Shown in pieces: positions 33,552-48,929 of a DNA stretch of 64,000 nt. Source of the stretch: Spirochaetia bacterium (lineage in GTDB: Bacteria; Spirochaetota; Spirochaetia; SZUA-6; Bin103); the NCBI GenBank assembly GCA_965199955.1, contig CBDATQ010000001.1, positions 1,419,897 through 1,483,896 of the forward strand. Direction: 5' to 3'. The notes under the pieces are model-generated. The model was not told where the DNA came from. It saw only the letters and a program-made list of their open reading frames with translations, and did no database searches. Positions within the stretch are counted from its first letter, which is position 1. Every line of letters begins with the position of its first letter. A program made the position numbers and the translations under genes.

Positions 33552-33749
33552 CGGTTCTCCTCGATCCAGCTTGAGCACCGACTCGGAGGTCGTGTCAATG
33601 GGTGCGTATCGCTTCGCCGCGTCGGTCCGTACCCGCAGCGCCGCGAACGGGGACTCGATCACGTCGTTCGTCCGCAGGTGCCGCCGGTCCGTTCGTCCAG
33701 TTCGTGCAGCCGCCGTACCTTCTGGCTGGCGGGAGCCGTGGAGGGAACG

Positions 33750-35597
33750 ATGAAGGTGGTGACGTTCGCGCGCTTCATCGCGCGCGGGATCGCGCTGAGC
33801 TGTCAGGCGGGCAAGGCGCTGTTCCTTGCCAGCACGCTCACATCGGTGGTGGGGGCGGTCATCGTGCCCCTGCAGATCGTGCTGCTGGCCACGACCATAG
33901 ATCTGGTCCCAAGCGTGGCCGGCTCCGGGTCGGCCGGTGAGGCGCTGCAAGCGCTCGCGTTGCCGCTGGCCGGCATGGCGCTCCTGTGGTTGCTGGGAGG
34001 CATGCTGGCACCAGTCAGCGAGTCATGCAGCCGCGCGTTCTACGTCAAGCTGGGGAATCATGTCCAGGGCCAGCTTCTGCGCAAGGCGGCATCGCTGGAT
34101 CTGGCGCTGTTCGACGATCAGCGCTTTTACAACAAGCTGGAGATAGCCCATCGGGATCACCGGCGCGCCGGCGACATGCCGGTCGCTCTGACGTATTCCC
34201 TGCGTTCATGGATCACGCTGGTGTCGGTGCTGGGGCTGCTGGCCATGTTCACGCCCTGGGCCGTGCTCATCCTGAGTGCTACCGTAGTGCCAGAGCTCCT
34301 GTTCCGAGGGCGGATCACCGGTCAGTTGTACGTGATGTGGAACACTCAGGCGCCGATCCAGAGGCTGTGCCACTACATCGCGTCGCTGCTTGTGGATCGA
34401 GTGCCGGCCAAGGAGACCCGCCTGTTCGGATTGGGGGCATCGCTGATCGAGCGTTACCGCCGGGCCCGGGTCGACCTGTATCGGCAGGAGCGGCGCATCC
34501 TGGGTGTCGAGGTCCGCGGCTTGGGCCTTCTGGGCTTGCTGTCGGTGGCGGGTACCGTGGCGATCTGGATCTGGGCCGCCGTCGATGCGGTCAGCGGCGC
34601 GGTCGCGCTCGGCACGCTGGTGCTGGTGTTCCAGTCTGCTGACAAGGCGCGAGGTCAACTCCAGGATGCCGCCCGGGGAGCCGGCATGCTGGTCGAGAGC
34701 CGGCTGCACGCGCAGAGCTATTTCGACTTCATGGACCTGAACCCCGGCGACTATGCCGGCTCGCTGCGACCGGCGGCGCGGCAGGTGGCCGCGCCGTCCT
34801 CCGTGAGTGACGGCCTCGAACTGACCGGCGTGTCCTTCGAGTATCCTGGGACGGAACGGCCGGTATTGCGGAACCTCAACCTCCGGTTGCGCGCAGGCGA
34901 GCGCGTGGCGATCGTGGGCGAGAACGGGGCAGGCAAGACCACCCTGGTGAAGCTGCTCACGCGCCTGTATGACCCGACGGGCGGCAGCATCGAGCTCGAC
35001 GGCGTCGATTACCGCGACTACGACGTCTCCGGGTTGCGGAAGCTCTTCGGCGTTGCGTTCCAGGACTACGCTCAATTTCATCTCACCGCACGCGAGAACG
35101 TCGGCTTCGGCGACATCGAGCGGGTGGACGACACCGAAGCGATCATGGAAGCCGTCCGCAGCGCGGCGGCGCAGGAGATGGTCGAGCAGTTGCCGAGCGG
35201 GCTCGACACCATGCTGGGCCGGACGCTGGGCGAAGGCACGGACCTGTCCGGCGGACAGTGGCAGAAACTGGCGCTGGCCCGCGCCTTCTTTCGCGACGGG
35301 GCCGTGCTGATCCTGGACGAGCCGACCGCCGCGCTCGACGCGCGTGCCGAGCACGAGCTGTTCGACCACATCCTGGCGGAGAGCCGCGGGCGCACCACGA
35401 TCATCATCTCGCACCGTTTCTCGACAGTGCGTAGCGCCGACCGTATTCTCGTGCTCCATGAAGGGGAGATCGTCGAGGACGGCGATCACGCCGGCCTGAT
35501 GGAGCGCAACGGCCGCTACGCCGAGATGTTCCGCCTGCAGGCCAGCCGCTACACCGATCCGCCTGCCGAGCAGGAAGAGGAACCGGGGGAGGAGTGA
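33750..35597 (+). CDS. ABC exporter, fused permease/ATP-binding protein (type I exporter, MsbA-like)
   Basis: 615 aa; N-terminal 6-TM domain; Walker A GENGAGKTT, signature LSGGQWQKLALARAF, Walker B ILDEPTAALD; SD GGAGGG upstream of the 33750 ATG. Confidence 0.85.
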   Translation: MKVVTFARFIARGIALSCQAGKALFLASTLTSVVGAVIVPLQIVLLATTIDLVPSVAGSGSAGEALQALALPLAGMALLWLLGGMLAPVSESCSRAFYVKLGNHVQGQLLRKAASLDLALFDDQRFYNKLEIAHRDHRRAGDMPVALTYSLRSWITLVSVLGLLAMFTPWAVLILSATVVPELLFRGRITGQLYVMWNTQAPIQRLCHYIASLLVDRVPAKETRLFGLGASLIERYRRARVDLYRQERRILGVEVRGLGLLGLLSVAGTVAIWIWAAVDAVSGAVALGTLVLVFQSADKARGQLQDAARGAGMLVESRLHAQSYFDFMDLNPGDYAGSLRPAARQVAAPSSVSDGLELTGVSFEYPGTERPVLRNLNLRLRAGERVAIVGENGAGKTTLVKLLTRLYDPTGGSIELDGVDYRDYDVSGLRKLFGVAFQDYAQFHLTARENVGFGDIERVDDTEAIMEAVRSAAAQEMVEQLPSGLDTMLGRTLGEGTDLSGGQWQKLALARAFFRDGAVLILDEPTAALDARAEHELFDHILAESRGRTTIIISHRFSTVRSADRILVLHEGEIVEDGDHAGLMERNGRYAEMFRLQASRYTDPPAEQEEEPGEE

Positions 35598-37057
35598 GCG
35601 CTCCGGCCCGCCCCAACCTCGTCCTGATCTCGGCCGACCAGTGGCGCGGCGACGTGCTCGGTGTCGCCGGCGACCCGGTGATCCACACGCCCGGCATCGA
35701 TGCCATGGCCGCCAGCGGCCACTACTTCCCGCGCGCGGTCACCGAGCTGCCGTCGTGCGTGGGCGCGCGCCGCACGCTGTTCAGCGGGCAGTGGCCGGTG
35801 ACGCACGGCATGACCGGCTTCGACGACCTGGAGCCGTGGCCGGAGCCCGACACCCTGTGCCGGGTCTTTCAGCGCAACGGCTACCGGACCTACGGCATCG
35901 GCAAGCGCCATGTCTATCCGCAGGACGCCCGCCACGGCTTCGACCTGCTGCGCACCCACGAGGAAGGCCGCTTCCTGAGCCCCGGCTACCGCGACGACTA
36001 CCTGTCCATGCTCGCCGAGGCGGGGTGGGGGGACTTCGGCCTGTTCGGCGCCGGGGTGACCAACAACAGCTACCACGGCCGCGCGAGCGTGCTGCCGCCG
36101 GAGCTGCACGTCACCACCTGGACCGCCACCGAGGCGATCCGGGTGATGGAGGACCACGTCAGGACCTGGGGCCGCGACCAGCCGTTCTTCCTGTACGTCT
36201 CCTTCAGCAAACCGCACCCGCCGTGGGACCCGCCGGCGCACTTCTTCGACCACTACTACGGCGACCCCGATCTGCCGATGCCCGTGATCGGGGATGCCGC
36301 CGGCTACGTCATCTCGCCCAGTCCGTTCGTGGCCGGCACGCGCGGGCCGCTCCCGGAGGGCGAGGTCTGTCAGCTCAAGGCCAGGGACATGCGCCGCGCG
36401 CGCGCCGCCTACTACGGCCTGATCGACCAGATCGACGCGCAGATCACCCGCCTGGCCTACCACCTGTGGCGCTCCCTGATGGTGCGCAACACCGTCTTCG
36501 CCTTCGTCGCCGACCACGGCGAGATGCTCGGCGATCACCACTGGTGGGCGAAGTCGGTGGGATACGAGGGCTCCATCCGCGTGCCGTTCGTCCTCAGCTT
36601 CCCTCAGGAGATGCCGCTGCCGACCAACCGCACCTATCCCGACGCGACCGTCGGGCTGGCCGACCTGATGCCCACTGTGCTGGACGCGTGCGGCCTGCCG
36701 ATCCCGGAGCGCTGCGACGGCGCGTCGCTGATGCCGCTGATTTCAGGCGAGGCGGACCGCCTCGACCGCGGCCATCTGCACGTCGAGCACCTGGAGTACG
36801 GCCACTTCCTGCTCGACCACACCGGGAAGTTCCTCTGGCACTACCGGATGGGCGTGAAGGAATACTACGACCTGCAGGACGACCCGAACGAGTGCCGCAA
36901 CCGCTACGGTGACGACCCGCGGGCGCCAAAGCTGGAGGAACGGCTGAAGGCGCTGCTGGTCGAACAGGGCCGCGAGGACGACTTCATGCGCGGGGGCGAG
37001 CTGGACGACGCGACCGCGCAGTCCCACATCCACGAGCCGCCCGCGTACGCGCGGTAG
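35594..37057 (+). CDS. sulfatase / alkaline-phosphatase-superfamily hydrolase with non-canonical active-site motif, cytoplasmic
   Basis: 487 aa; N-terminal LVLISADQWRGD and the sulfatase fold pattern; active-site segment SCVGARRTLFSG in place of canonical CxPxRxxxLTG; GTG start overlaps the ABC exporter stop (GTGA). Confidence 0.8.
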   Translation: MSAPARPNLVLISADQWRGDVLGVAGDPVIHTPGIDAMAASGHYFPRAVTELPSCVGARRTLFSGQWPVTHGMTGFDDLEPWPEPDTLCRVFQRNGYRTYGIGKRHVYPQDARHGFDLLRTHEEGRFLSPGYRDDYLSMLAEAGWGDFGLFGAGVTNNSYHGRASVLPPELHVTTWTATEAIRVMEDHVRTWGRDQPFFLYVSFSKPHPPWDPPAHFFDHYYGDPDLPMPVIGDAAGYVISPSPFVAGTRGPLPEGEVCQLKARDMRRARAAYYGLIDQIDAQITRLAYHLWRSLMVRNTVFAFVADHGEMLGDHHWWAKSVGYEGSIRVPFVLSFPQEMPLPTNRTYPDATVGLADLMPTVLDACGLPIPERCDGASLMPLISGEADRLDRGHLHVEHLEYGHFLLDHTGKFLWHYRMGVKEYYDLQDDPNECRNRYGDDPRAPKLEERLKALLVEQGREDDFMRGGELDDATAQSHIHEPPAYAR

Positions 37058-37081
37058 CCGGATTCGACGCAGGAGGTTTTC

Positions 37082-38452
37082 ATGACGCCGTTACCCACCA
37101 CCAACCAGGGTTGGCTCGAGCTTGGCAATCGGTATCTCCTTCGGCATCCGATGCGGACCGCTCCGCTGGTGCCCGAGCGTGGCGAGGGAATCTACCTGTG
37201 GGACGTGGAGGGCCGGCGGTTCATCGACTTTCAGTCCGGTCAGCTCTGCGTGACGCTCGGCCACTCCCACCCGGAGTACGTGCAGGCGCTGTGCGACCAG
37301 GCACGGAAGATCGTTCAGATCGGCAGCACCTTCATAGCGCCGTCAGAGGTGCTGTTGGCGAAGAAGATGGCCGACATCGCACCCGATCCGCTGCAGAAGT
37401 CCTTCTTCGCGTGTACCGGTTCCGAATCGAACGAGATGGCGCTGCGCCTGGTGAGGAAGTACACGGGACGCTTCGAGGTGATCGCGCTCATGCGCGGCTA
37501 CCACGGGCAGTCGTACGGGAGCGCATCCATCACCGGTCGGGGCGGCATGCTGCGCGAGGGATACGGCCCCATGCCCGCCGGCGCCGCGTTCGTTCCGCCG
37601 CCGTACGCCTATCGCTGCCAGTTCTGCCGCGATGAGGCCTGCTGCAACCTGGGCTGCGCCGACGCGGCCGAGTACGTCCTCGATACGGCGACCTCCGGCC
37701 GGCCGGCGGCGTTCTTCTTCGAGCCGTTGATGAGCGCGGCCGGACAGATCGTGCCCTCCAGGGAGTGGATACGGCGGATGGTCGAGGTCTGCCGGAGCCG
37801 GGACATACTGATGGTGGCGGACGAAGCGCTGACCTGCTTCGGCCGGACGGGCCGGTGGTTCGCCTTCGAGCACTTCGACTTCGTGCCCGACCTCGTCACC
37901 TGCTCAAAGGGGCTCGGCGGCGGCGTGCCCCTGTGCGCGGTCCTTACCAGCGCCGAGATCGCCGACGTGGCAGTGGAACGGGGGTTCATGCCGTTCTCGT
38001 CCCACGCCGGGGACCCGCTGCTCTGCGCCACCGGCCTGGCGAACCTGGAGATCGTCGAACGCGAAGATCTCGTGGAGAACGCCCGGCGGGTAGGCGGCTA
38101 CTTCATGGAAAAACTCAAGGCGCTGGAGAGAGAACTGGCCATCGTCGGCGAAGCCCGCGGCCTCGGCCTGTGTCTGGGCCTGGAGCTGGTGACCGACAAG
38201 GAGAGCCGGGAGCCCAACTTCGCTGCTGCCGCGATGGCGACGAACTACTGCTACGAGCACGGCCTGTGGCTGCCGATCGTGCCGATGGTGCAAGACGACA
38301 ACCCGCTGAGTCGGCGTTTCATGGAGATCTCGGGCTCCCACGTCCTGCGCTTCATGCCGCCGATCACCGTCACCGAGGCGCAGATCGACGAAGCGATGGA
38401 CATCATCGCGGCAAGCCTGCGGCTCGCGGAAGATGCATGCGCATCGGCGTAG
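37082..38452 (+). CDS. class-III (omega) aminotransferase, PLP-dependent
   Basis: 456 aa; aminotransferase class III pattern including CSKGLGGG with the PLP-lysine, and ADEALTCFGRTG. Confidence 0.85.
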   Translation: MTPLPTTNQGWLELGNRYLLRHPMRTAPLVPERGEGIYLWDVEGRRFIDFQSGQLCVTLGHSHPEYVQALCDQARKIVQIGSTFIAPSEVLLAKKMADIAPDPLQKSFFACTGSESNEMALRLVRKYTGRFEVIALMRGYHGQSYGSASITGRGGMLREGYGPMPAGAAFVPPPYAYRCQFCRDEACCNLGCADAAEYVLDTATSGRPAAFFFEPLMSAAGQIVPSREWIRRMVEVCRSRDILMVADEALTCFGRTGRWFAFEHFDFVPDLVTCSKGLGGGVPLCAVLTSAEIADVAVERGFMPFSSHAGDPLLCATGLANLEIVEREDLVENARRVGGYFMEKLKALERELAIVGEARGLGLCLGLELVTDKESREPNFAAAAMATNYCYEHGLWLPIVPMVQDDNPLSRRFMEISGSHVLRFMPPITVTEAQIDEAMDIIAASLRLAEDACASA

Positions 38453-40464
38453 ATTCCGGCGGCACGTTCACGGACGTGGTCGCCTTCGACCCGGAACGCG
38501 GCCGCCTGGTGTTCCACAAGGTCGCCTCGACGCCGGACGACCCGGCGGCGGGCATCGTCAGCGGCGCGCTGGGAGCCGCCGAGCGGGCGGAGGCGCAGCC
38601 GGTCGACGTGGCGATGCTCATCCACGGCACGACGGTCGCCACCAACCAGGTGCTGCAGCGCGCCGGGGCGCTGGTCGCGCTGATCACCACCGCCGGGTTC
38701 CGGGACGTACTGCACATCCAGCGCCAGTCGCGGCCGCGCATGTACGACCTGCGCTCACGCCGGACCGCTCCGTTGGTGCCGCGCGAGCTGCGCTTCGAGG
38801 TGCGCGAGCGCATGCGCTTCGACGGCACCGTTCAGACCCCCCTGGACCGCGCGGGGCTGGCCGCCGTGATCGACGCCATCCGCGATGCGGGCGTGCAGGC
38901 GGTCGCCGTGGGGCTGCTACACAGCTACGCCAATCCCGGCCACGAGCGGGAGATAGGCGAGGAGGTGGCGCGCCGGCTGCCGGGGGTCGCCGTCAGCCTG
39001 TCGCACGAGCTGATGGGCGAGCACGGCGAGTACGAGCGGTTCAGCACCTGCGTGATGAACGCATTCGTGCAGCCGGGGATCGAGCGCTACGTTACTCGGC
39101 TCGGCGCGGGGCTGCGCGAGGCCGGCTTCACGGCGCCGCTGTACGTGATGAAGTCCAACGGCGGCGTCATGACCGCCGCTTCCGCCGCGCGCCGCTGCGT
39201 GGAGACGGTGCTCTCCGGGCCGGCCGGCGGCGTGGTCGCGGGCGCCGCGGTGGCGCGGGCGCGCGGCGCCGCCGACCTGATCACCTGCGACATGGGCGGC
39301 ACCAGCTTCGACGTCGGCGTCATCCAGGACGGCGACATCCCGTTCGCCCGCGACACGGAGATGGGCGGCCTTGCCCTTGGCGTGCCGATGCTGGACCTGC
39401 ACACCGTGGGCGCCGGCGGCGGCAGCATCGCCTGGCTGGACGCCGGCAACGCCCTGCGCGTGGGGCCGCGCTCGGCCGGCGCCGTGCCCGGGCCGGCCTG
39501 CTACGGGACCGGCGGCAGCGAGCCGACGGTCACCGACGCCGACCTGGTGCTGGGCCGGCTGGGGACCCGGACGCTGCTGGGCGGCGGCATGACCCTGGAC
39601 CGGGAGGCGGCCGAGCGGGCGATTCACGACCGCATCGCCGCGCCGCTCGGACTGGGCGTCGCCGAGGCGGCCGAGGGGATCGTGCGCGTGATCAACGCCA
39701 CCATGACCGCCGCGATCCGCAAGCTGACCATCGAGCGCGGCCACGATCCCCGCCGGTTCGCGCTCTGCCCGTTCGGCGGCGCCGGCCCCATGCACGGCGC
39801 GGAGCTGGCCGCCGAGCTGGGGGTCGCGGAGACCGTGATCCCGGTCGCCCCCGGCGTGCACTCCGCGCTCGGGCTGCTGATGACCAATCTGCGCGAGGAC
39901 CGCACCCGCACGCTGGTGCGGCGGCTGGACGCCGCGGCCGTGGAGGAGCTGAGCGCCGTGCTGGGCGACCTGGAAACGGAGGGACGCGCGCAACTCCGCG
40001 CGCACGACGGAGTCGCTCCGGCCGTCAGCCGCGCGGTCGGTCAGCGCTACCTGGGCCAGCGTTACGAGCTGTCGGTGCCAGTCGGCGCCGAGCTGCCGCC
40101 GCTTGCGGAGCTCGGCGACCGGTTCCACGACCTGCACGACCGGCGCTACGGCTACCGGCGCGAAGACCATCCGGTGGAGGTGGCCAGCGCCTGGGTGGCG
40201 GTCGAGCACGACCTGCATCCCCTGGAGATGCCCGAGGCGCAGGCGGCTGCCGGGGAGCCCGCGCCCCGCCTGATGCGGGAGGCTCGCTTCAACGGCGTCG
40301 AGCAGGAGGTGCCGGTGTTCGCTCGCGCGGACCTTGGAGCCGGCTGCATCGTGCGCGGGCCGGCGGTCGTGGAGCAACTCGACGCCGCCTCCGTCATTCC
40401 CCCGGCGCACCGGCTGGAGGTGGATCGCTTCGGCCACCTGGTGGTATCACGCACCGATGGCTGA
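38437..40464 (+). CDS. hydantoinase/oxoprolinase/lactamase family, A subunit (HyuA-like, ATP-dependent)
   Basis: 675 aa from MRIGVDSGGTFTDVV (ASKHA-type N-terminus of HyuA/OplA); the 5' part of the long ORF is a shadow. Confidence 0.85.
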   Translation: MRIGVDSGGTFTDVVAFDPERGRLVFHKVASTPDDPAAGIVSGALGAAERAEAQPVDVAMLIHGTTVATNQVLQRAGALVALITTAGFRDVLHIQRQSRPRMYDLRSRRTAPLVPRELRFEVRERMRFDGTVQTPLDRAGLAAVIDAIRDAGVQAVAVGLLHSYANPGHEREIGEEVARRLPGVAVSLSHELMGEHGEYERFSTCVMNAFVQPGIERYVTRLGAGLREAGFTAPLYVMKSNGGVMTAASAARRCVETVLSGPAGGVVAGAAVARARGAADLITCDMGGTSFDVGVIQDGDIPFARDTEMGGLALGVPMLDLHTVGAGGGSIAWLDAGNALRVGPRSAGAVPGPACYGTGGSEPTVTDADLVLGRLGTRTLLGGGMTLDREAAERAIHDRIAAPLGLGVAEAAEGIVRVINATMTAAIRKLTIERGHDPRRFALCPFGGAGPMHGAELAAELGVAETVIPVAPGVHSALGLLMTNLREDRTRTLVRRLDAAAVEELSAVLGDLETEGRAQLRAHDGVAPAVSRAVGQRYLGQRYELSVPVGAELPPLAELGDRFHDLHDRRYGYRREDHPVEVASAWVAVEHDLHPLEMPEAQAAAGEPAPRLMREARFNGVEQEVPVFARADLGAGCIVRGPAVVEQLDAASVIPPAHRLEVDRFGHLVVSRTDG

Positions 40465-42154
40465 CGGAGCCGCGATCGATCCCATCACGCTCGAGATCAT
40501 GCGCAACCGCTGGCTGGGAATCGCCGAGGAGTGTTGCGCCGCCCTGGTGCGCGCCAGCTACTCCACCAACATCAAGGACCGCCGTGACTGCTCGGTGGCG
40601 CTGGCCACGCCCGACGGGGTGATCGTCGCCCAGGCGGAGGTGGGCACGCCCCTCCACCTGGGCATCATGCCGGGCGTCCTGGGCGCGATCCTGGCCGAGT
40701 TTCCTCCGAAGGGGATGCAGCCCGGCGACATGTATGCCAGCAACCTGCCCTATCCCGAGGGGCCGGGCCACCTGCCGGACCTGTCGCTGGTGGCGCCCGT
40801 CTTCCACGGGGGCGAGCTGGTCGCACTTTCGGCGTCCACCGCCCACCACGTGGACATGGGCGGCTACGCGCCGGGCAGCATGCCGTTCGGGGTGACCGAG
40901 ATCTACCAGGAGGGGCTGCAGATCCCGCCGATCGCGCTGGTGCGCGGCGGCGAGCTGCAGGAGCCGATCCTGCGGCTGATCGAGCAGAACGTCCGCACCC
41001 GCATCGAGGTGCGCGGCGACCTGATGGCCCAGTACGCCACCGCCCGCACCGCGGAGCGGCGGGTGGCCGAGCTGCTGGACGCAGGCGACGGCCGGCTGGC
41101 GCTCGACGCCATCCCCGCCATCCTCGATCACGCCGAGGCGTGCATGCGCGCCGGCATCCGCGGGCTGCCTGACGGGGTGTACCGGTTCCGCGACTACCTG
41201 GACGACGACGGCTTCACCGACGACCCGGTACGCATCGCCGTCGAGATCCGCGTCGCTGGTGACGAGTTGTCCGTCGACTTCGACGGAACCAGCGCCCAGG
41301 TGGCCGGCCCCCTGAACGCGCGGCTGAGCGCCGCGCGCGCGGCGGTCTACTACACCTGCAAGGCCGTGATCGACCCCGACCTGCCCACCTCGGCCGGAGC
41401 CTACCGCCCCATACACGTCAGCGCTCCGGAAGGGACGGTCATGAACGCCACCTTCCCGGCGGCCATCGGCAACGCCAACATCCTCACCGACCAGCGTGTG
41501 GTCGACGTGCTGATGGGGGCGCTGGCGCAGTGCGTGCCGGAGCGGGTGTGCGCCGCCTGTTCGGGAGAGATGAACCTGCTCAACATCGGGGGCGTCGACG
41601 ACCGTCCCGACGCCCTCGACTCCTACTACAACTACGTGGAGACCTACGCTGGCGGGCAGGGAGCGATGCACGACCTGGACGGCGAGGACGGCGTGCACAC
41701 CCATCTGACCAACACCCGCAACGCCCCGGTGGAGGTGATCGAGCGCACCTACCCGCTGGAGGTGGTGCGCTACGGGCTTGTCCCCGACACCGAGGGCGCG
41801 GGCCGCCGGCGCGGCGGCTGCGGCATGGTGCGCGAGCTGCGCTCCCTGGGCGAGCGCACGGTGGTCACCATCGGCGCCGACCGCCGCCGCTTCACGCCCT
41901 GGGGGTTGGACGGCGGGAAGAATGCTACGGGCTCGATGCTCACCGTGACCGCCGCCGACGGCACGGTGCGCGTGCTGCCGACCAAAGCGTTCGTGGAGCT
42001 TCAGCGCGGCGACGTGCTCACTGTCCAGACGCCGGGCGGCGGCGGCTGGGGCGCGCCGGCGGACCGTGAGCCCGACCGGCTGGATCGGGACGTAAGCTCC
42101 GGCCTGATCAGCCCGGAGCGGGCGCGTGAGGTGTACGGCAGCGACGGTCCCTGA
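40457..42154 (+). CDS. hydantoinase/oxoprolinase/lactamase family, B subunit (HyuB-like)
   Basis: 565 aa from MADGAAIDPITLEIMRNRW (canonical HyuB N-terminus); 8-nt overlap with the A subunit. Confidence 0.85.
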   Translation: MADGAAIDPITLEIMRNRWLGIAEECCAALVRASYSTNIKDRRDCSVALATPDGVIVAQAEVGTPLHLGIMPGVLGAILAEFPPKGMQPGDMYASNLPYPEGPGHLPDLSLVAPVFHGGELVALSASTAHHVDMGGYAPGSMPFGVTEIYQEGLQIPPIALVRGGELQEPILRLIEQNVRTRIEVRGDLMAQYATARTAERRVAELLDAGDGRLALDAIPAILDHAEACMRAGIRGLPDGVYRFRDYLDDDGFTDDPVRIAVEIRVAGDELSVDFDGTSAQVAGPLNARLSAARAAVYYTCKAVIDPDLPTSAGAYRPIHVSAPEGTVMNATFPAAIGNANILTDQRVVDVLMGALAQCVPERVCAACSGEMNLLNIGGVDDRPDALDSYYNYVETYAGGQGAMHDLDGEDGVHTHLTNTRNAPVEVIERTYPLEVVRYGLVPDTEGAGRRRGGCGMVRELRSLGERTVVTIGADRRRFTPWGLDGGKNATGSMLTVTAADGTVRVLPTKAFVELQRGDVLTVQTPGGGGWGAPADREPDRLDRDVSSGLISPERAREVYGSDGP

Positions 42155-42525
42155 GAGCGCGTCCCGCCATATCGGCAGTTGTCGGAACTCGGGTTGGCCC
42201 AGTGGCTGGAAATCGCGACGAGCGGGGACATAACGACTGCACAATACTCGCGGGGAGGAGAAATCGGGCACTCTTGCAGATCCACCAACGCCGGCGCTGG
42301 CGGTGAAAGGTTGGCGTTCCGCACGCCGGCGGATCCAGGGTCTGTCCCGACCGAGGGTGGGAGCTGTCGCCACGATCGGCCGGAGCCAGTAGCGGCGTCG
42401 CGCGTCCGTGATCGGCTCGAACGGCCTGAGAGGGGCGGCAGGGGCAGCGCTTGACGGAGCACAGAGAAGCGGACATTTGCGCCCGGAGCGGCCCCTGTCA
42501 TATCATCGCGGTCTCTCCTGCACCG

Positions 42526-43233
42526 ATGCCGCTAACCTACTATATCCACGCACGCCGCGACGAGCCCAAGGTTGCGCTGACCTTCGACGACGGGCCGAAC
42601 CCGCCCCGCACCGACGAGATCATGGACATCCTGGAGGCGAAGGGAGCCCGCGGCACGTTCTTCGTGCTCGGCAAGTGGGTCGAGCGGTGGCCGCAGGCGT
42701 TCGAGCGGATCGTGCGGCGCGGCCACTGCATCGGCAACCACAGCCACGTCCACCACGCACACGTCGGCGACTTCGACCGCGCCGAGGCCGTGATCGGCAA
42801 CATCCTGGGCCGCCCCACGCGGTTCTTGCGCGCCCACTACTTCAACTACTTCACCTGCCTGTACTCGCCGCTTGCGATGTCCGAGTCGATGGCGATCGTC
42901 GACTCGGACGTCAACCCGGCCGACTACGCCAAGACCGATCCGCAGGAGATCGTCGAAGCCACGCTGCAGCACCCGTCGCTCGCCGCCGGGTCGATCATCG
43001 ACCTGCACGACAGCGGCGAGACGGACGACGACGGGCTGCGCCTGGCACGGCCGCTGCCGCTGATTGCGGCTCTGCCGACGATCATCGACGGCCTGCAGGC
43101 GCAGGGCTTCCAGCTCGTCGGCCTGGACCAGATGACCCTGGTCGACCCGGTCGAGTGGCAGCCGGACGACCGCGCGACCTACGCGTCGCCGGAGGCGCGC
43201 GCCGCGGTGTACGAGCTCGGCCGGCAGCGATGA
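42526..43233 (+). CDS. polysaccharide deacetylase (NodB-homology domain, CE4-like)
   Basis: NodB motifs ALTFDDGP and HSHVHH; start chosen at MPLTYY (the ORF could begin at 42451). Confidence 0.75.
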   Translation: MPLTYYIHARRDEPKVALTFDDGPNPPRTDEIMDILEAKGARGTFFVLGKWVERWPQAFERIVRRGHCIGNHSHVHHAHVGDFDRAEAVIGNILGRPTRFLRAHYFNYFTCLYSPLAMSESMAIVDSDVNPADYAKTDPQEIVEATLQHPSLAAGSIIDLHDSGETDDDGLRLARPLPLIAALPTIIDGLQAQGFQLVGLDQMTLVDPVEWQPDDRATYASPEARAAVYELGRQR

Positions 43234-43287
43234 ACCTCGCCTTCAACATCTGCTCATCAATCCTTGTTCACGAAGGAGGAGACTAGA

Positions 43288-44868
43288 GTGAACATCCGTA
43301 TCAGACCTGTGTTCCTGGCCGTGCTGGCGGTCGCGCTGGTGCTCGGCGGCGGCGCGGCCGTGGCGTACGACGACGTCCTGGTGATCGCGATATCGGGCGA
43401 CATCGAGACGCTCGACCCGCCGTTCTCGCGCTTTCAGCGCTCGAACGAGACCAACCTGAACGTCTACGACCAGTTCTTCCGCTACGGGCGGCGCGACACC
43501 GGTCAGGGCTACAGCATCGCCGACACCGGCACCATCGAAGGCGCAGCCATCGAGTCGTGGGAGTGGTCGGACGACGGGCTGTCGATCGTGCTCGACATCC
43601 GGCAGGGCGTGACCTTTTCCAAGACCGGCCGCGAGCTGACCGCCGACGACTTCATCTACTGGTTCGACCGGGCGCACGGAACGGAGTCCGGCACCGCCTG
43701 GAACGTCAACACCGCCGGCATCACCGCGTACGAGAAGACCGGCGACCACCAGGTGACGCTGCAGTTCTCGAATCCCAGCCCATGGTTCTTCTTCCTGTTC
43801 CGCGACCAGTCGCAGGGGCCGATGGACCACGTCGAGGCGCAGGCGCACGTCGAGTCCGACGATCCGTGGGCGACGCGCTGGCTGGCCAAGAACGACGTCG
43901 GCTCCGGCGAGTACTACGTCGAGAGCTGGGAGGCCGGCGTGCAGATGGTGCTGCGCGCCAATCCCGACTACTGGGCCGGGCCGGCCTTCTTCGAAGAGAT
44001 CATCCTGCAGATCGTCCCCAACTCGGCCGATCGCGCGCTGCTGCTGCGCGAAGGAGAGGTGGACATCGCCACCGGGCTCTCCACGGACGAGCTTTCTGCC
44101 CTGCGCGACTCCGACGGCGTCAAGGTGCTGTCGATTCCGACGCGCAACCAGATGATCTTCGGCTTCAACGTGCAGCGTGCGCCGTTCGACGACGAGCGCG
44201 TACGCCAGGCGCTGTCCTACGCGGTGCCGTACGAGGCGATCGCGCAGGGGATCTTCGGCGGCAACGCTCTGGTGTCGGCCGGTCCGATACCGGTCGGCGG
44301 GCAGTATCACGACAGCAGCCTGTGGCCGTACAGCTTTGATCTGGACAAGGCGTCGGCCCTGCTGGCCGAGGCCGGCTACGGCGACGGGTTCGAGTTCACC
44401 CTGGACATCGCCTCCGGCCTGCCCACCACGGAGCAGATCGCGGTCGTCCTGCAGGACGCGTTCAAGGACGTCGGCGTGACCATGAACATCAACCCGCAGC
44501 CCGCCGCGGTGTTCGCGGAGCAACTCGGCACGCTGGAGCATCACGCCTGGATGCGTGACCTGCTGTGGTACGTGGACGACGCCGGCTATACCGGCGACCT
44601 GTTCTTCCGTACCGGCGCGGTCGCCAACTGGATGGGCTACAGCGACACGGAGCTGGATCCCATCATCGACGAGCTGACCGTCACGCTCGACCCCGGGCGC
44701 AAGGCGGAGCTGACGCATCGCTACCAGGAGATCCTGATCGCGGCGGCGCCGGCTCTCTACGTCTCGGAGATGCCGTTCGAGATCGCGATGCGCGACGATA
44801 TTCACGGCTACGTGCAGCTCCCCGACAATCTGCTGTGGTACTGGCCGCTGTACCGCGACGACGGCTGA
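43288..44868 (+). CDS. ABC transporter solute-binding protein, family 5 (peptide/nickel/oligosaccharide type)
   Basis: signal peptide VNIRIRPVFLAVLAVALVLGGGAAVA after a GTG start with SD GGAGGAG; family-5 length and composition. Confidence 0.85.
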   Translation: MNIRIRPVFLAVLAVALVLGGGAAVAYDDVLVIAISGDIETLDPPFSRFQRSNETNLNVYDQFFRYGRRDTGQGYSIADTGTIEGAAIESWEWSDDGLSIVLDIRQGVTFSKTGRELTADDFIYWFDRAHGTESGTAWNVNTAGITAYEKTGDHQVTLQFSNPSPWFFFLFRDQSQGPMDHVEAQAHVESDDPWATRWLAKNDVGSGEYYVESWEAGVQMVLRANPDYWAGPAFFEEIILQIVPNSADRALLLREGEVDIATGLSTDELSALRDSDGVKVLSIPTRNQMIFGFNVQRAPFDDERVRQALSYAVPYEAIAQGIFGGNALVSAGPIPVGGQYHDSSLWPYSFDLDKASALLAEAGYGDGFEFTLDIASGLPTTEQIAVVLQDAFKDVGVTMNINPQPAAVFAEQLGTLEHHAWMRDLLWYVDDAGYTGDLFFRTGAVANWMGYSDTELDPIIDELTVTLDPGRKAELTHRYQEILIAAAPALYVSEMPFEIAMRDDIHGYVQLPDNLLWYWPLYRDDG

Positions 44869-44964
44869 TCACCGAGCCGCTCTCTTTCCGTGTGCGGGGT
44901 GCGGGCGCCGAGCGCTCGTCACCCCGCTCATCTTTCGGTGGCTTTCGTGAGCGCGCCCTGACCG

Positions 44965-45993
44965 ATGCTTGAGTCCGCGCGCGAATGGGCGCTGTTCCTG
45001 GCCAAGCGGGTCGGGATCCTCATCATCTCCCTGCTGGGCGTGTCGATGATCACCTTCGCGGTCACGCATGCCATCGGCAACCCCGTCTACCTGCTGGTCG
45101 GTCCCAGGCACAACCAGGAGATGCTCGACAACCTGACCCGCGAGCTGGGCCTGGACCGGCCGCTGTACGAGCGCTACGTCAACTACCTGGCCAACCTGGC
45201 CCGAGGCAACCTGGGCGTGTCCCGCTACTCCTACAACCCGGTGCTGACCGACATCCGCTCGCGGCTGCCGGCCACCCTGGAGCTGTCCACGTTCGCGCTG
45301 CTGCTCGGGGTGCTGTGGGCGGTGCCGGCCGGCGTGGTCGCCGGCATCCGCCGCCGCGGCGTGTTCGCCCGGTTGGCGGACGTGACCGCGCGCGGCGGCG
45401 TCTCCATGCCCGGGTTCTGGCTCGGGCTGCTTCTGATCTTCGTCTTCTTCGCGGAGCTGGGCTGGCTGCCGGCGCCGCTCGGCCGCCTGGACCGCGAGTT
45501 CGGCAAGCCGCCGTACGTCACCGGCTGGTACACGGTCGACTCGCTGCTGGCCGGCGACGCCGGCGCGTTCGTGTCCACCGTCCGCCACCTGATCCTGCCG
45601 GCGGTGACGCTGGCGCTCACCACCAGCCCCAGCACGCTGCAGATCACGCGCAACAAGATGCGGGAGGTGATGCAGAGCGACTTCATCCGCACCGCCAGGG
45701 CGTTCGGGATGCCGTCCTCGACGGTCTATCGCTATGCGCTGCGCAACATCCTGGGACCGGTGATCACCATGATCGCCATGACCTACGGCTATCTGCTGAG
45801 CGGCACCGTGCTGGTCGAGGTGGTGTTCACCTGGCCGGGGCTGGGGCTGTACGCGGTCGACGCCATGAACCACTCCGACTACGAGCCGATCATGGGCGTG
45901 GTGCTGCTGACCGCCGCCTTCTACCTGACGATCTACCTGGCCGCCGACGTCGTCAACGCCATGCTCGATCCGCGCGCGCGCAGCCGGGAGTGA
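44965..45993 (+). CDS. ABC permease (DppB/OppB-like)
   Basis: 342 aa, 6-TM permease with a conserved N-terminal amphipathic helix. Confidence 0.85.
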   Translation: MLESAREWALFLAKRVGILIISLLGVSMITFAVTHAIGNPVYLLVGPRHNQEMLDNLTRELGLDRPLYERYVNYLANLARGNLGVSRYSYNPVLTDIRSRLPATLELSTFALLLGVLWAVPAGVVAGIRRRGVFARLADVTARGGVSMPGFWLGLLLIFVFFAELGWLPAPLGRLDREFGKPPYVTGWYTVDSLLAGDAGAFVSTVRHLILPAVTLALTTSPSTLQITRNKMREVMQSDFIRTARAFGMPSSTVYRYALRNILGPVITMIAMTYGYLLSGTVLVEVVFTWPGLGLYAVDAMNHSDYEPIMGVVLLTAAFYLTIYLAADVVNAMLDPRARSRE

Positions 45994-45995
45994 GC

Positions 45996-46877
45996 ATGGG
46001 CGCCGCCGATCTCGCGTCCGCCGCCGTGGCCGACACCGCCCGGCCGGGCTTCTACCGGCGCCTGGAGAACGCCAACGGCGCCGCCCGGGTGCGGATCAAC
46101 CTCGCCCTGCTTTCGCTGCTGATCATGCTGGGCGCGGTCGCTCCGCTGCTGCCGCTGCAGGATCCGGTCGATCCGAATCCGCTCTCCCGGTTCGCGCCGC
46201 CGTCGCGGGAGCACTGGTTCGGCACCGACACCAATGGCATGGACGTGTTCTCCCGCACGATCCACGCGATTCGCGTCGACTTCTCGCTGGCGCTGAGCTC
46301 GGTGCTGTTGGGCATCCTGGTCGGCGTGCCGCTGGGCGCGCTGGCCGGCTACTTCGGGGGCCGTTTCGACACCGTGGTGACGCGGATCACGGAGGTGTTC
46401 CAGGGCTTTCCGCAGATCCTGTTCGGGATGGCGGTGCTGGCGGCCGCCGGCAACACGCTGGTGAACCTGGTGCTGATCATCGCGTTTTACAACGTTCCCG
46501 TGTACAGCAAGATGGTGCGCAGCGCCGCCGTGCCCCTGCGCGAGGCGGACTTCGTGCTGGCGGCGCGGGTGTTCGGCAACTCGCCGCTGTCGGTGGTGTT
46601 CCGGCACGTCATGCCCAACACGCTGGTGCCGGTGTTCTCGCAGCTTCCGCTGAGCTGCGCCTACGCCGTGCAGATGATCGCGGGCCTTAGCTTCGTCGGC
46701 CTGGGCGTCTCCATCCCGACGCCGGAGTGGGGCTCGATGATCCAGCTCGGCGCAAATCAGATGGTGTTCGGCAAGTGGTGGGCGTCGGTGTTCCCCGGAC
46801 TGGCGCTGTTCGGCTCGGTCTGGGTGCTCAACAACGTCAGCGACCTGCTCGGGTCGCTGGTGGTACGGCGGGCGTGA
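45996..46877 (+). CDS. ABC permease (DppC/OppC-like)
   Basis: 293 aa from MGAADLAS, multi-TM; the long upstream ORF in this frame is a shadow over the preceding permease. Confidence 0.85.
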   Translation: MGAADLASAAVADTARPGFYRRLENANGAARVRINLALLSLLIMLGAVAPLLPLQDPVDPNPLSRFAPPSREHWFGTDTNGMDVFSRTIHAIRVDFSLALSSVLLGILVGVPLGALAGYFGGRFDTVVTRITEVFQGFPQILFGMAVLAAAGNTLVNLVLIIAFYNVPVYSKMVRSAAVPLREADFVLAARVFGNSPLSVVFRHVMPNTLVPVFSQLPLSCAYAVQMIAGLSFVGLGVSIPTPEWGSMIQLGANQMVFGKWWASVFPGLALFGSVWVLNNVSDLLGSLVVRRA

Positions 46878-46881
46878 CGCC

Positions 46882-47841
46882 GTGGCCCTGCTGTCGATCC
46901 GCGACCTGGCCGTGGAATTCCTGGTCGACCGGCAGACCATTCACGCCCTGCGCGGCGTGACCATGAGCCTCGAAGAGGGGTCGCGCACGGCGGTCGTCGG
47001 CGAGAGCGGCTCGGGCAAGACCGTGACCGCGCTCAGCGTTCTGCGGCTCCTCCCGCCAACCGCGCGGATAACTTCCGGGCAGATCGATTTCGCCGGCCGG
47101 GACCTGACCTCACTGGACGATGCGCGGCTGGGCGAGATCCGCGGCTCGCAGGTGGCGATGATCTTCCAGCACGCCGCGGCGGCACTCAATCCGCTCTGGC
47201 CGGTCGGCCGCCAGATCGCGGACGTCTATCGCCGCCACCGGGGAGGAGCGCGGCGCGAAGCGTGGCAGCGCGCGGTCGAGGTGCTGGCCGCCACGGGCAT
47301 CCCCGACGCGGCCGCGCGTGCGCGGGACTATCCGCACCAGTTCTCGGGCGGCATGGCGCAGCGGGTGATGATCGCGATGGCGCTGGTGTGCTCGCCGAAG
47401 TTGCTAATCGCCGACGAGCCCACCACCGGGCTCGACCTGACCATCCAGGTGCAGGTGCTCGATCTGATAGCCGAGGTGGTCGAGCGGCTGGGCGCGACGC
47501 TGATGCTCATCTCGCACGACCTGGCGATCGTCGGAGCGCTCTGCGACCACGTGGTGGTGATGTACGCGGGCGAGGTGATGGAGAGCGGCACCACCGCGCA
47601 GGTGCTCGAAGAGTCGGCCAATCCGTACACGGAAGGGTTGCTGGCGTGCTTCGCCGAGGCAGAGGGCGGAGACATGCCGTCCATCCCCGGACGCGCACCC
47701 GACATGCGCCGGCCGCTGCCGGGCTGCGGATTCGCCGAGCGCTGCGCGCATGCCGGCGCCATCTGCCGACGGCATCCGGCGCCGGTGGTCGAGGTCGCGG
47801 CCGGGCATCTCTCGCGGTGCCACTTCGCCGGGGAGCGGTAG
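46882..47841 (+). CDS. ABC ATPase (DppD/OppD-like) with C-terminal oligopeptide-transporter extension
   Basis: GTG start; Walker A GESGSGKT, signature FSGGMAQRV, Walker B LIADEPTTGLD; C-terminal Cys-rich tail. Confidence 0.85.
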   Translation: MALLSIRDLAVEFLVDRQTIHALRGVTMSLEEGSRTAVVGESGSGKTVTALSVLRLLPPTARITSGQIDFAGRDLTSLDDARLGEIRGSQVAMIFQHAAAALNPLWPVGRQIADVYRRHRGGARREAWQRAVEVLAATGIPDAAARARDYPHQFSGGMAQRVMIAMALVCSPKLLIADEPTTGLDLTIQVQVLDLIAEVVERLGATLMLISHDLAIVGALCDHVVVMYAGEVMESGTTAQVLEESANPYTEGLLACFAEAEGGDMPSIPGRAPDMRRPLPGCGFAERCAHAGAICRRHPAPVVEVAAGHLSRCHFAGER

Positions 47842-47948
47842 CGCCCCAAACCCGTCGCCTCCGGCTCCGCGTTTGGCCCATCCCTGCCTTCCGGTTCGGA
47901 TTCTGTCGGCTTCCCGCTTGAGCGGCAATCCGCCAGAATCCTCGCGGC

Positions 47949-48929
47949 GTGGACGACCAGCCGCTGCTCCGTGTCGAGCGCTCGGTGAAGCGCTACGCGC
48001 TGCGCCGGCGCGGTCTGCGCCGCTCGCACGTGGCGGCCCTGGACGGCGTGTCGGTCGCGGTGCGGCGAGGCGAGTGCGTGGGCCTGGTCGGGGAATCGGG
48101 TTCCGGCAAGTCGACGCTGGGCCGCTGCGTGCTCAACCTCACGCCTCTGGATGCGGGCCGCATCGTGTTTCAGGGGAAGGAGATCCAGGCGCTGGGAGAA
48201 CGCGAGTGGCGGCCGTTGCGCCGGCAGTTGCAGATGGTGTTTCAGAACCCGCTGACCTCGTTCAACCCCATGATGACCATCGAGCAGTCACTGCAGGACG
48301 CGTTGCGCCACACCGCCGGCATGGAGGCCGCGGCGCGGCGCAGCCACGCGCGGGTATTGCTGGAGCAGGTGCAGCTCGATCAGCGGTTCGCGGCGCTCTA
48401 TCCGTACGAGCTCTCCGGCGGTCAGTTGCAGCGCGCCGCCATCGCGCGGGCGCTGGCGCCGGGGCCCGACTTCCTGTTCCTGGACGAGCCGACGGCCGCC
48501 CTGGACATGTCGATCAAGGGGCAGATCGTGAATCTGCTCCGCGAGCTGCAGCGCCGCCACGAGCGGGCGCTCATCTTCGTGTCGCACGACCTGCGGGCGG
48601 TACGCTACGTGGCCGACCGCATCTGCGTGATGTACCAGGGTCAGGTCGTGGAGCAGGGCAGCCGCGCTGCCGTATTCCACCGGCCGCGGCATCCGTACAC
48701 CCGAGCCCTGCTGGCCGCGACGCTGATCGGGCGCGGCGCGCGCGCCGCGTCGACCGCGCCGGGCGGTGACAACGAGCCCACGGAGCGGTTACCGGAGGGA
48801 TGCCGGCTGGTCGGACGCTGTCCGTTCGCCCAGGAATGCTGCCGGCGGGAGCCGCAGGAGTTGCGCCCGATCGCGCCGGGCCACGAGGTTCGCTGCTGGC
48901 GCTCGGAGGAGCTCCCCGCGGCCGGCTGA
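47949..48929 (+). CDS. ABC ATPase (DppF/OppF-like)
   Basis: Walker A GESGSGKST, signature LSGGQLQRAAIARAL, Walker B LFLDEPTAALD. Confidence 0.85.
   Translation: MDDQPLLRVERSVKRYALRRRGLRRSHVAALDGVSVAVRRGECVGLVGESGSGKSTLGRCVLNLTPLDAGRIVFQGKEIQALGEREWRPLRRQLQMVFQNPLTSFNPMMTIEQSLQDALRHTAGMEAAARRSHARVLLEQVQLDQRFAALYPYELSGGQLQRAAIARALAPGPDFLFLDEPTAALDMSIKGQIVNLLRELQRRHERALIFVSHDLRAVRYVADRICVMYQGQVVEQGSRAAVFHRPRHPYTRALLAATLIGRGARAASTAPGGDNEPTERLPEGCRLVGRCPFAQECCRREPQELRPIAPGHEVRCWRSEELPAAG

Follow-up and report, generated by a model that had tools for sequence, protein, structure and literature searches.

A candidate HyuA/HyuB-type cyclic-amide hydrolase and a late-inserted class-III PLP enzyme in a sponge-symbiont spirochaete

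Marine and symbiotic bacteria carry a greatly expanded HyuA/HyuB family, of which almost no member has a known substrate; one sampled Rhodospirillales MAG has 25 HyuA-like matches, and the genome examined here has seven HyuAB pairs. Several described systems come close to the locus reported below. The caprolactamase CapA/CapB of Pseudomonas jessenii (PDB 6YRA) resembles it in being a two-subunit, ATP-dependent cyclic-amide hydrolase, as is predicted for our pair, and in having a class-III PLP enzyme encoded alongside; both keep the ATP motifs P1, P2 and A together with the Asp-His-Asp-His metal site. A fused 1288-aa protein deposited under the name 'N-methylhydantoinase' (PDB 7HK5/9H03) has in common with our HyuB an NTRN-P-E motif region that is missing from CapB. 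Acetone carboxylase (Xanthobacter, 5SVB/5M45) and acetophenone carboxylase (5L9W) belong to the same superfamily and have the same metal-site scaffold. Catabolism of the opine lactam agropinic acid, encoded on Agrobacterium Ti plasmids, employs the HyuA/HyuB-like AgaF/AgaG and an opine/peptide-type ABC importer; here, too, a HyuAB-type enzyme stands beside an importer of the SBP_bac_5 type. Many Agrobacterium plasmids carry HyuB homologues at 31–40% identity, in records that bear generic product names only. A literature search on the 7HK5/9H03 structure and on sponge-symbiont hydantoinases returned nothing usable.

The window, the whole 64,000-nt stretch of DNA that was analysed, comes from a sponge-symbiont spirochaete and contains a real three-gene unit on the plus strand. 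It consists of an aminotransferase-family gene (AT) for a class-III PLP enzyme similar to 2,2-dialkylglycine decarboxylase (DGD) (37082..38452; Aminotran_3, E = 1e-80), HyuA, the predicted ATP-binding, substrate-phosphorylating subunit (38437..40464; Hydant_A_N, E = 3e-54; Hydantoinase_A, E = 6e-97), and HyuB, the predicted metal-dependent hydrolytic subunit (40457..42154; Hydantoinase_B, E = 2e-178). The end of AT runs 16 nt into HyuA (ATGCGCATCGGCGTAG), and that of HyuA 8 nt into HyuB. The ORFs, the enzyme families and the order AT-HyuA-HyuB with these two overlaps are as the initial annotation had given them. The true HyuA frame begins at 38437; a 729-aa ORF at 38433 has no family match, and in this DNA of 69% GC the list of longest ORFs is misleading. 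Upstream lies a sulfatase-family gene (35594..37057, plus strand; Pfam Sulfatase and SGSH_C) with a C-V-G-A-R active-site motif. Downstream, a 371-nt spacer (42155..42525) separates hyuB from a CE4 (NodB-type) deacetylase-family gene (42526..43233, plus strand, with ATG at 42526; Polysacc_deac_1, E = 6e-22). The Pfam matches of a whole Dpp/Opp-type ABC importer follow on the plus strand (43264..48929): an SBP_bac_5 protein (43264-44868), two permeases (44965-45993 and about 45990-46877) and two oligo_HPY ATPases (46882-47841 and 47949-48929). The deacetylase and transporter genes claimed up to 48929 are thus present.

In two RNA libraries, contigs run across the junctions between the sulfatase gene and AT, AT and HyuA, and HyuA and HyuB (0–3 mismatches), which is consistent with, and does not prove, co-transcription. 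The reading of AT, HyuA and HyuB as one operon is upheld. The contigs stop at 42518 and resume at 42525-42531; depth changes about 6-fold at the CE4 start, and CE4/Dpp lie on separate, deeper contigs, although such contigs cannot reveal strand or transcript ends. Two small-share RNA runs (X17 and X19) were excluded because they mapped at 90–95% identity and belong to relatives. Co-transcription with HyuAB does not in itself prove that AT acts on the HyuAB product.

HyuA-type and HyuB-type domains in an adjacent pair with an 8-nt overlap place HyuAB in the hydantoinase/oxoprolinase family, and the Pfam scores (184 and 325 bits for HyuA on PF05378 and PF01968, 595 bits for HyuB on PF02538) are above the gathering scores. 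The DxGGTxTD, DxGGT and GxxPGP motifs of the A subunit are present in HyuA as DSGGTFTD (6-13), DMGGT (285-289) and GAVPGP (348-353), and the metal tetrad of the B subunit as D44/H105/D108/H130 of HyuB, aligned to CapB D41/H99/D102/H124. Among solved structures the best relative is the 'N-methylhydantoinase' 7hk5 (478/273 bits for HyuA/HyuB), followed by caprolactamase 6yra (433/202), acetophenone carboxylase (285/130) and acetone carboxylase (224/49). This ranking puts the pair, as far as sequence similarity can tell, on the hydrolase side. In both the HyuA and the HyuB tree the pair falls inside a 100%-supported clade, together with orthologues from its genus, the sister genus and Planctomycetota, Lentisphaerota and Gemmatimonadota, and outside the CapAB and acetone-carboxylase clades. 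A check for clustering with the acetone/acetophenone carboxylases, which would have told against the hydrolase assignment of the initial annotation, found none in either the PDB ranking or the trees. These are FastTree trees with several long branches; CapA anchors were chosen by NF050156 score (plus an adjacent CapB) and acetone carboxylase anchors by the PF08882 gamma subunit, and the anchors are without OPLAH, N-methylhydantoinase and the NS671 HyuAB. Characterised enzymes come no closer to the pair than the 35–40% identity range. Assignment as a caprolactamase CapAB equivalog was rejected, since the pair scores 543 and 266 bits against cut-offs of 1000 (NF050156/NF050157) and lies outside the CapA and CapB clades, each with 100% support; sequences above the CapA cut-off score 1174–1244 bits, and scores of 543/266 bits are generic for any HyuA. 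Of the six other HyuAB pairs in the genome one is fused like OPLAH, and this paralog is no better than the window pair against 7hk5 (705 bits overall), so that no orthology to 7HK5/9H03 can be claimed; the comparison singled out no paralog as the most oxoprolinase-like. The genome has four full creatininase-family genes and a fragment, none adjoining any HyuAB pair, and hence a creatinine route is not tied to the window HyuAB.

AT belongs to the class-III, fold-type I family PF00202 (272 bits) and keeps the Schiff-base Lys and the Asp that pairs with the pyridine nitrogen (counterparts of DGD Lys272 and Asp243). Its best PDB match is DGD of Burkholderia cepacia (1DKA; 270 bits over 431 residues), versus only 179 bits to 6g4b, which we take to be the P. 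jessenii caprolactam-pathway transaminase. The suggested analogy of AT to the transaminase of caprolactam catabolism is thus not sustained. No NCBIfam model reaches its cut-off on AT; membership of a biosynthetic clade was looked for as well, and AT is not of the ArgD type (249 bits against a cut-off of 410, TIGR00707). Counterparts of DGD Q52, D243, K272 and R406 are all kept, as are those of the K+-site residues Ser80, His304 and Asp307, and the GabT-type Arg141 and Glu211 positions hold Gln and Ala. The active-site set of DGD comprises Gln52, Trp138, Met141, Ser215, Tyr301 and Arg406; the AT pocket differs from it by Trp138->Tyr, Met141->Gln, Ser215->Ala, Tyr301->Phe and Gln246->Leu. AT also has a conserved Cys cluster (YRC-x2-C-x4-CC-x3-C) where the DGD loop is Cys-free. 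Since its dN/dS is 0.06–0.11, AT is probably functional, and the four conserved DGD residues together with Gln and Ala at the GabT-type positions suggest that it is probably of the pyruvate type. Because decarboxylases, racemases and lyases are found in the DGD-like subgroup as well, transamination by AT is not assured.

A HyuB orthologue, and with it HyuAB, is found in 13/13 genomes of the genus and 10/11 of the sister genus; the AT orthologue occurs in only 8 of the 13 genus genomes. Genome-wide searches found it nowhere in the other five (G001, G003, G004, G007, G008), where the AT-less junctions are clean (18–50 nt), and rooting the tree implies that AT was gained a single time inside the genus and lost a single time. 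In the sister genus and three other phyla the HyuAB orthologues stand alone as gene pairs among unrelated neighbours, and AT is absent from those inspected in six sister-genus genomes and at 11 loci of other phyla. Any class-III aminotransferase lies within about 4 kb of only 2 of 75 non-genus HyuA loci. Close AT homologues number 14 in marine metagenome contigs (13 at 77–85% identity, one at 50%), none with HyuA/B nearby within the contig DNA examined. A distantly related cluster with the order AT-SBP-permeases-HyuA-HyuB is present in metagenome contigs L149/L152. The neighbours of Planctomycetota/Gemmatimonadota HyuAB and of marine AT orthologues are mutually unrelated and give no substrate clue. 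To judge from this distribution, AT is a late, dispensable, lineage-specific insertion before an older stand-alone HyuAB pair. The initial annotation had envisaged a candidate module of ring opening plus transamination. That such a module is conserved does not agree with an AT gene present in 8 of 13 genus genomes after one gain and one loss; nor do the comparisons support AT and HyuAB as a dedicated pair, with AT missing from HyuAB loci of the sister genus and other phyla and AT orthologues elsewhere lacking HyuAB.

The genes downstream are no more constant. CE4-Dpp closely follows hyuB in the window and in four relatives (G001, G004, G006, G011). In the loci examined in G003, G005 and G012 no SBP/Dpp match follows CE4 within 5.4–7.5 kb of DNA, in the one from G007 neither CE4 nor Dpp matches follow hyuB, and in the sister genus CE4-Dpp is not beside HyuAB. 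A defence-like, mobile cassette (AAA_21 and RloB) separates hyuB from CE4 in five relatives. Of the genomes compared only this one has the 371-nt spacer (blastn against 17 related loci gave no match), in which there is no Rfam match, promoter-like site or plus-strand terminator-like site. At several other loci (L024, L031, L043, L067, L069) HyuAB lies beside peptide-type ABC genes. CE4 and the Dpp-type importer are therefore a neighbouring, separately organised and variably linked unit, which the pathway need not include; the variable linkage, the cassette and the absence from the sister genus do not bear out the idea of the initial annotation that they could supply and deacylate the substrate.

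The upstream side is steadier. The sulfatase gene adjoins HyuA, or AT-HyuA, in 12/12 genus loci inspected, with an invariant C-V-G-A-R motif. Sulfatase genes lie within 3 kb of 3/7 HyuAB pairs in the genome, and non-orthologous sulfatases lie 0–6 kb from the orthologous HyuAB in 6/6 sister-genus loci. We take this adjacency as a hint only, because a test gave a p-value of only about 0.03 under a generous random model. These hints underlie a reading that we regard as quite unlikely, namely that the conserved unit is the unusual C-V-G-A-R sulfatase-fold enzyme plus HyuAB, which together would process, in two steps, a cyclic amide that the sponge host makes and that is sulfated or otherwise esterified, with the DGD-like enzyme recruited later in one subclade to harvest nitrogen.

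The reading we prefer, with somewhat better than even confidence, is that HyuAB is a stand-alone ATP-dependent cyclic-amide hydrolase with an accessory, acquired DGD-like AT, and that CE4/Dpp is not obligatory. HyuAB would be a lactamase/hydantoinase/oxoprolinase-type enzyme. If it works like CapAB, the substrate in its lactim form would be phosphorylated by HyuA with ATP, and the ring so activated would be hydrolysed at the HyuB metal site. The uncharacterised orthogroup of the pair would already have been present in the common ancestor of the sponge-symbiont spirochaete family. A horizontally acquired DGD-like class-III PLP enzyme would then have been inserted directly before hyuA in one genus subclade, becoming translationally coupled to it. 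Most likely it takes the amino group off the product of ring opening and passes it, probably, to pyruvate, in a step that the core function of HyuAB would not require.

We think it unlikely that the locus encodes a dedicated pathway in which the Dpp importer and NodB deacetylase supply the substrate, HyuAB opens an omega-lactam and the omega-amino acid is then transaminated by AT, on the pattern of caprolactam catabolism. The gene order and the 16/8-nt overlaps are as such a pathway would have them, CE4-Dpp is close behind hyuB in the window and the same four relatives, and there are the L149/L152 cluster and the five loci with peptide-type ABC genes beside HyuAB. Against this are the late gain and single loss of AT and its absence from every orthologous HyuAB locus outside the subclade, the missing or partial CE4-Dpp in the sister genus, G007, G003, G005 and G012, the cassette in five genomes, the break and depth change of RNA contigs at the CE4 start, the position of HyuAB outside the CapAB clade and the preference of AT for DGD over 6g4b. 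Moreover, no aldehyde dehydrogenase gene, to carry a semialdehyde product onward, is found in the 64-kb window. We give a similarly small chance to HyuAB being the lineage's housekeeping 5-oxoprolinase, repairing spontaneous pyroglutamate, with AT merely on the same transcript. Lone two-gene orthologues with unrelated neighbours in the sister genus and three phyla are what a housekeeping role expects, the best solved relative has an OPLAH-like fused architecture, and a search of 25 relatives, with control genomes positive, turned up no PxpA, the subunit that bacterial 5-oxoprolinases usually have. However, 16 of the 17 order-level relatives searched have no orthologue of this HyuB, and PxpA is in 0/9 of those searched, so complementarity between HyuAB and PxpA does not hold. 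The six other HyuAB pairs, the OPLAH-like fusion among them, and the low identity to characterised enzymes also speak against this role, and its product, glutamate, would need no DGD-like enzyme.

Two further alternatives turn on the chemistry of the PLP enzyme. It might be a racemase or epimerase of an alpha-amino-lactam or amino-acid amide that acts before HyuAB and feeds it one enantiomer, like alpha-amino-epsilon-caprolactam (ACL) racemase. ACL racemase, amino-acid amide racemase, isoleucine 2-epimerase and a broad-specificity racemase are among the PDB matches of AT (195–205 bits), and the NCBIfam Leu/Met racemase model scores 261 bits. DGD is nevertheless clearly higher at 270 bits, the counterpart of its Arg406, which binds the alpha-carboxylate, is kept, and HyuAB would appear, from the distribution of AT, to work without AT in related genomes; we consider a racemase very unlikely. 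DGD produces ketones from dialkylglycines, and HyuAB, whose superfamily includes the carboxylases, could itself be an acetone/acetophenone-type carboxylase that acts on a ketone from a DGD-like decarboxylating transaminase. This is extremely improbable given the 49 bits of HyuB to acetone carboxylase alpha, the position of both subunits outside the acetone-carboxylase clade and the acetophenone carboxylase (Apc) models, which score 145–289 bits against cut-offs of 1250–1500. In addition, no Acetone_carb_G gene (PF08882, the gamma subunit) was found in the genome; the same family matches 7/401 Pseudomonadota.

A tight, translationally coupled gene order can come from recent insertion, so that gene order alone defines no pathway. 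Here, comparison with a dozen close relatives told the old sulfatase-HyuAB core apart from the PLP enzyme, a young addition, and from CE4-Dpp, a neighbour with only a loose attachment. If its substrate is found, the stand-alone hydrolase that we favour would join the few characterised ATP-dependent lactamases, and the finding might lead to a metabolite of the sponge that its symbionts use.

Set against the known systems, the locus departs from each. Tyr136 of the CapB pocket is Met in HyuB, which also lacks the vicinal Cys410-Cys411; the gene order is A-B here and B-A in the caprolactamase system, and our PLP enzyme is a dispensable one of the DGD-like kind. The 7HK5/9H03 protein is a single fused chain and is only moderately similar to the two-gene pair. 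AT keeps the Gln52, Asp243, Lys272, Arg406 and K+-site counterparts of the B. cepacia enzyme, and differs in its replaced pocket residues and its Cys cluster. Unlike in the agropinic acid system, the importer is variably linked to HyuAB, and unlike the acetone and acetophenone carboxylases, which score much lower and form separate clades, the pair has no gamma subunit. Because the older pair received its PLP gene late and can do without it, HyuAB with AT is an ordinary addition to a known enzyme type, and nothing suggests a new kind of system.

The window has a GC content of ~69%, so its list of longest ORFs is crowded with spurious frames; domain searching found no family match for a 729-aa ORF starting at 38433. 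The initial annotation described an aminotransferase gene overlapping a HyuA/HyuB pair, and its families, order, and overlaps all match what we found: a class-III PLP enzyme (AT, 37082–38452; Aminotran_3, E 1e-80), HyuA (38437–40464; Hydant_A_N and Hydantoinase_A), and HyuB (40457–42154; Hydantoinase_B, E 2e-178), with 16 nt of hyuA already read before the AT stop (ATGCGCATCGGCGTAG) and a hyuA/hyuB overlap of 8 nt. An ABC exporter (33267–35597) and a sulfatase-family gene (35594–37057) precede these genes. Downstream, a 371-nt spacer separates hyuB from a CE4 (NodB-type) deacetylase gene (ATG at 42526), after which the genes of a complete Dpp-type importer extend to 48929. The accompanying interpretation, a candidate lactam ring-opening and transamination module with CE4 and Dpp as possible suppliers of the substrate, is supported in part.

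HyuA contains all three ATP-site motifs defined for caprolactamase (PMC8453981), as DSGGTFTD, DMGGT, and GAVPGP, and HyuB retains the Asp-His-Asp-His metal ligands (D44, H105, D108, and H130). HyuB differs from the caprolactamase subunit CapB in having Met at pocket position Tyr136 and in lacking the vicinal disulfide. The top solved structure for both proteins is a fused 1288-aa "N-methylhydantoinase" (7hk5; 478 bits for HyuA, 273 for HyuB), compared with 433 and 202 bits for caprolactamase (6yra), 285 and 130 for acetophenone carboxylase, and 224 and 49 for acetone carboxylase. Against the NCBIfam caprolactamase models the pair scores 543 and 266 bits (cut-offs of 1000); since 450–610 bits to the CapA model is typical of any HyuA homologue, a caprolactamase "best hit" carries no specificity. 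We built HyuA and HyuB trees of 98–99 sequences each, anchored by five CapA sequences above the equivalog cut-off (1174–1244 bits, each with an adjoining CapB) and four acetone carboxylases found via their gamma-subunit gene. In both trees the window pair falls in a strongly supported clade with orthologues from its genus, the sister genus, and Planctomycetota, Lentisphaerota, and Gemmatimonadota (these last at 57–60% and 68–70% identity), separate from the genome's six other HyuAB pairs and outside both the CapAB and acetone-carboxylase clades. No Acetone_carb_G was found in the genome, though the family search does give matches elsewhere. This placement and this absence argue that HyuAB is of the hydrolase type and belongs to an uncharacterised orthogroup, and a ketone carboxylase is effectively excluded.

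AT matches no NCBIfam model at its cut-off; ArgD was rejected as an identity at 249 bits (cut-off 410). Its top solved relative is 2,2-dialkylglycine decarboxylase (DGD; 270 bits, next match 218 bits), and PDB 6g4b, which we take to be the Pseudomonas jessenii caprolactam-pathway transaminase, scores 179 bits. Aligned to DGD, AT retains counterparts of Gln52, Asp243, Lys272, Arg406, and the K+-site residues, with substitutions at Trp138, Met141, Ser215, Tyr301, and Gln246. In the same alignment the positions that are presumably Arg141 and Glu211 of GabT-type enzymes are Gln and Ala, which argues against a 2-oxoglutarate/GABA-type enzyme. Searches also place racemases, an ammonia-lyase, and a phospho-lyase among its neighbours, so transamination is only its putative reaction. 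A cluster of Cys residues, YRC-x2-C-x4-CC-x3-C (residues 181–194, window 37622–37663), is kept in all close orthologues and recurs in reduced form, with three to four Cys, in many homologues at 43–50% identity, whereas the corresponding DGD loop is Cys-free. The residues may bind a metal ion or an Fe-S cluster; a 2Fe-2S cluster is known from pig GABA aminotransferase. Where present, AT is under strong purifying selection (dN/dS 0.06–0.11).

The window's genome has its closest relatives among sponge-associated "Spirochaetia" MAGs. Among these, a HyuB orthologue occurs in 13/13 genomes of the genus and 10/11 of the sister genus; an AT orthologue occurs in eight of the 13, was not found anywhere in the other five (G001, G003, G004, G007, and G008), and in the sister genus is represented only by an incomplete match (65%) on a 2-kb contig of its own. 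Wherever AT occurs, the sulfatase gene precedes it and hyuA follows; in AT-less genomes hyuA starts 18–50 nt after the sulfatase stop, and these junctions hold no AT remnant. When HyuA and HyuB were concatenated and the tree rooted on the sister genus, three AT-less genomes were basal, and all seven included AT-bearing genomes plus one AT-less genome formed one 100%-supported clade, a topology that implies one gain and one loss. The closest AT relatives outside the genus (77–85% identity) are on marine metagenome contigs of 52–55% GC, some with Latescibacteria as source label; their neighbours vary between contigs, with no HyuA or HyuB gene within the contig DNA examined. AT is also missing where HyuAB orthologues were compared in six sister-genus genomes and at 11 loci of other phyla, and the genes flanking all these loci are unrelated to one another. 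Any class-III AT lies within ~4 kb of just 2/75 non-genus HyuA loci, by rough estimate close to chance. Two metagenome contigs (L149:1888–10353 and L152:8001–16751) encode a class-III AT, SBP_bac_5, two permeases, HyuA, and HyuB; their HyuA joins the CapA clade with weak support (86%), and they are a distant cluster in which the same parts were joined independently. At the window locus AT is a young, dispensable add-on to HyuAB.

The downstream genes also vary. Neither the sister genus nor G007 has CE4–Dpp beside HyuAB, and in G003, G005, and G012 the locus DNA compared shows no Dpp match after CE4. Five genus genomes carry a homologous hyuB–CE4 insert of 1.8–2.1 kb and lower GC (60–62%), at L212:10994–13063 (G002) and in L001 (G003), L009 (G009), L211 (G012), and L214 (G010). 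It codes for an AAA_21 ATPase and an RloB-like protein, with a DDE transposase in addition in G010, and looks like a small defence cassette. The window's own spacer is unmatched in all relatives compared, and searching it gave no Rfam match and no promoter-like or + strand terminator-like site.

Contigs near-identical to the window come from two RNA libraries of one study, probably the one that yielded the genome. They cover sulfatase–AT (36087–38037 and 36865–38831) and AT–HyuA–HyuB–spacer (38030–42518) at depth 8–12, with fresh contigs from 42525 and 42531, at the CE4 ATG; depth rises from about 8–17 before 42518 to 57–60 after the CE4 start. Because RNA libraries can contain DNA and contigs reveal neither strand nor transcript ends, this is a weak hint that CE4–Dpp forms its own, more strongly expressed unit; the break at 42518–42531 could be a transcript start or processing site, or may be an assembly effect.

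Three of the genome's seven HyuAB pairs have a sulfatase-family gene no more than 3 kb away (window 35594–37057, C1:794454–795923, and C1:1777233–1778501; permutation p ~0.03), and in the sister genus a non-orthologous sulfatase lies 0–6 kb from the orthologous pair in 6/6 loci. The window sulfatase, alone among ~40 in the genome, has C-V-G-A-R in place of C-x-P-x-R, invariant in 12/12 genus orthologues. Among the HyuAB paralogs, one (C2:643251–647333, minus strand; also L236:51–4133) is a single 1360-aa HyuA–HyuB frame with the fused architecture of eukaryotic 5-oxoprolinase (705 bits to 7hk5), and at another locus (C2:109326–114880) two HyuB genes come after HyuA. A 3.6-Mb Rhodospirillales MAG (G044, source of L029) has 25 HyuA-like matches (346–610 bits to the CapA model, 0/25 above cut-off), an extreme family expansion.

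From family, motifs, and clade, we commit to HyuAB as a putative self-sufficient ATP-dependent cyclic-amide hydrolase. On the model of CapAB (PMC8453981), HyuA would phosphorylate the lactim and HyuB would carry out metal-assisted hydrolysis; the DGD-like enzyme, recruited within one subclade, would probably deaminate the product with pyruvate as acceptor. The full pathway first proposed, CE4 and Dpp included, remains a rival, and so does a housekeeping 5-oxoprolinase: PxpA was not found in the 25 relatives searched, but relatives without the HyuAB orthogroup also lack PxpA, and six HyuAB paralogs compete for the role. The PLP enzyme as an amino-lactam racemase is a further rival. We found no aldehyde dehydrogenase within the 64-kb window, and creatininase genes are linked to none of the genome's HyuAB pairs. 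The locus is chiefly of value as a case of recent operon assembly by insertion; the HyuAB–AT unit itself belongs to an already known kind of system.
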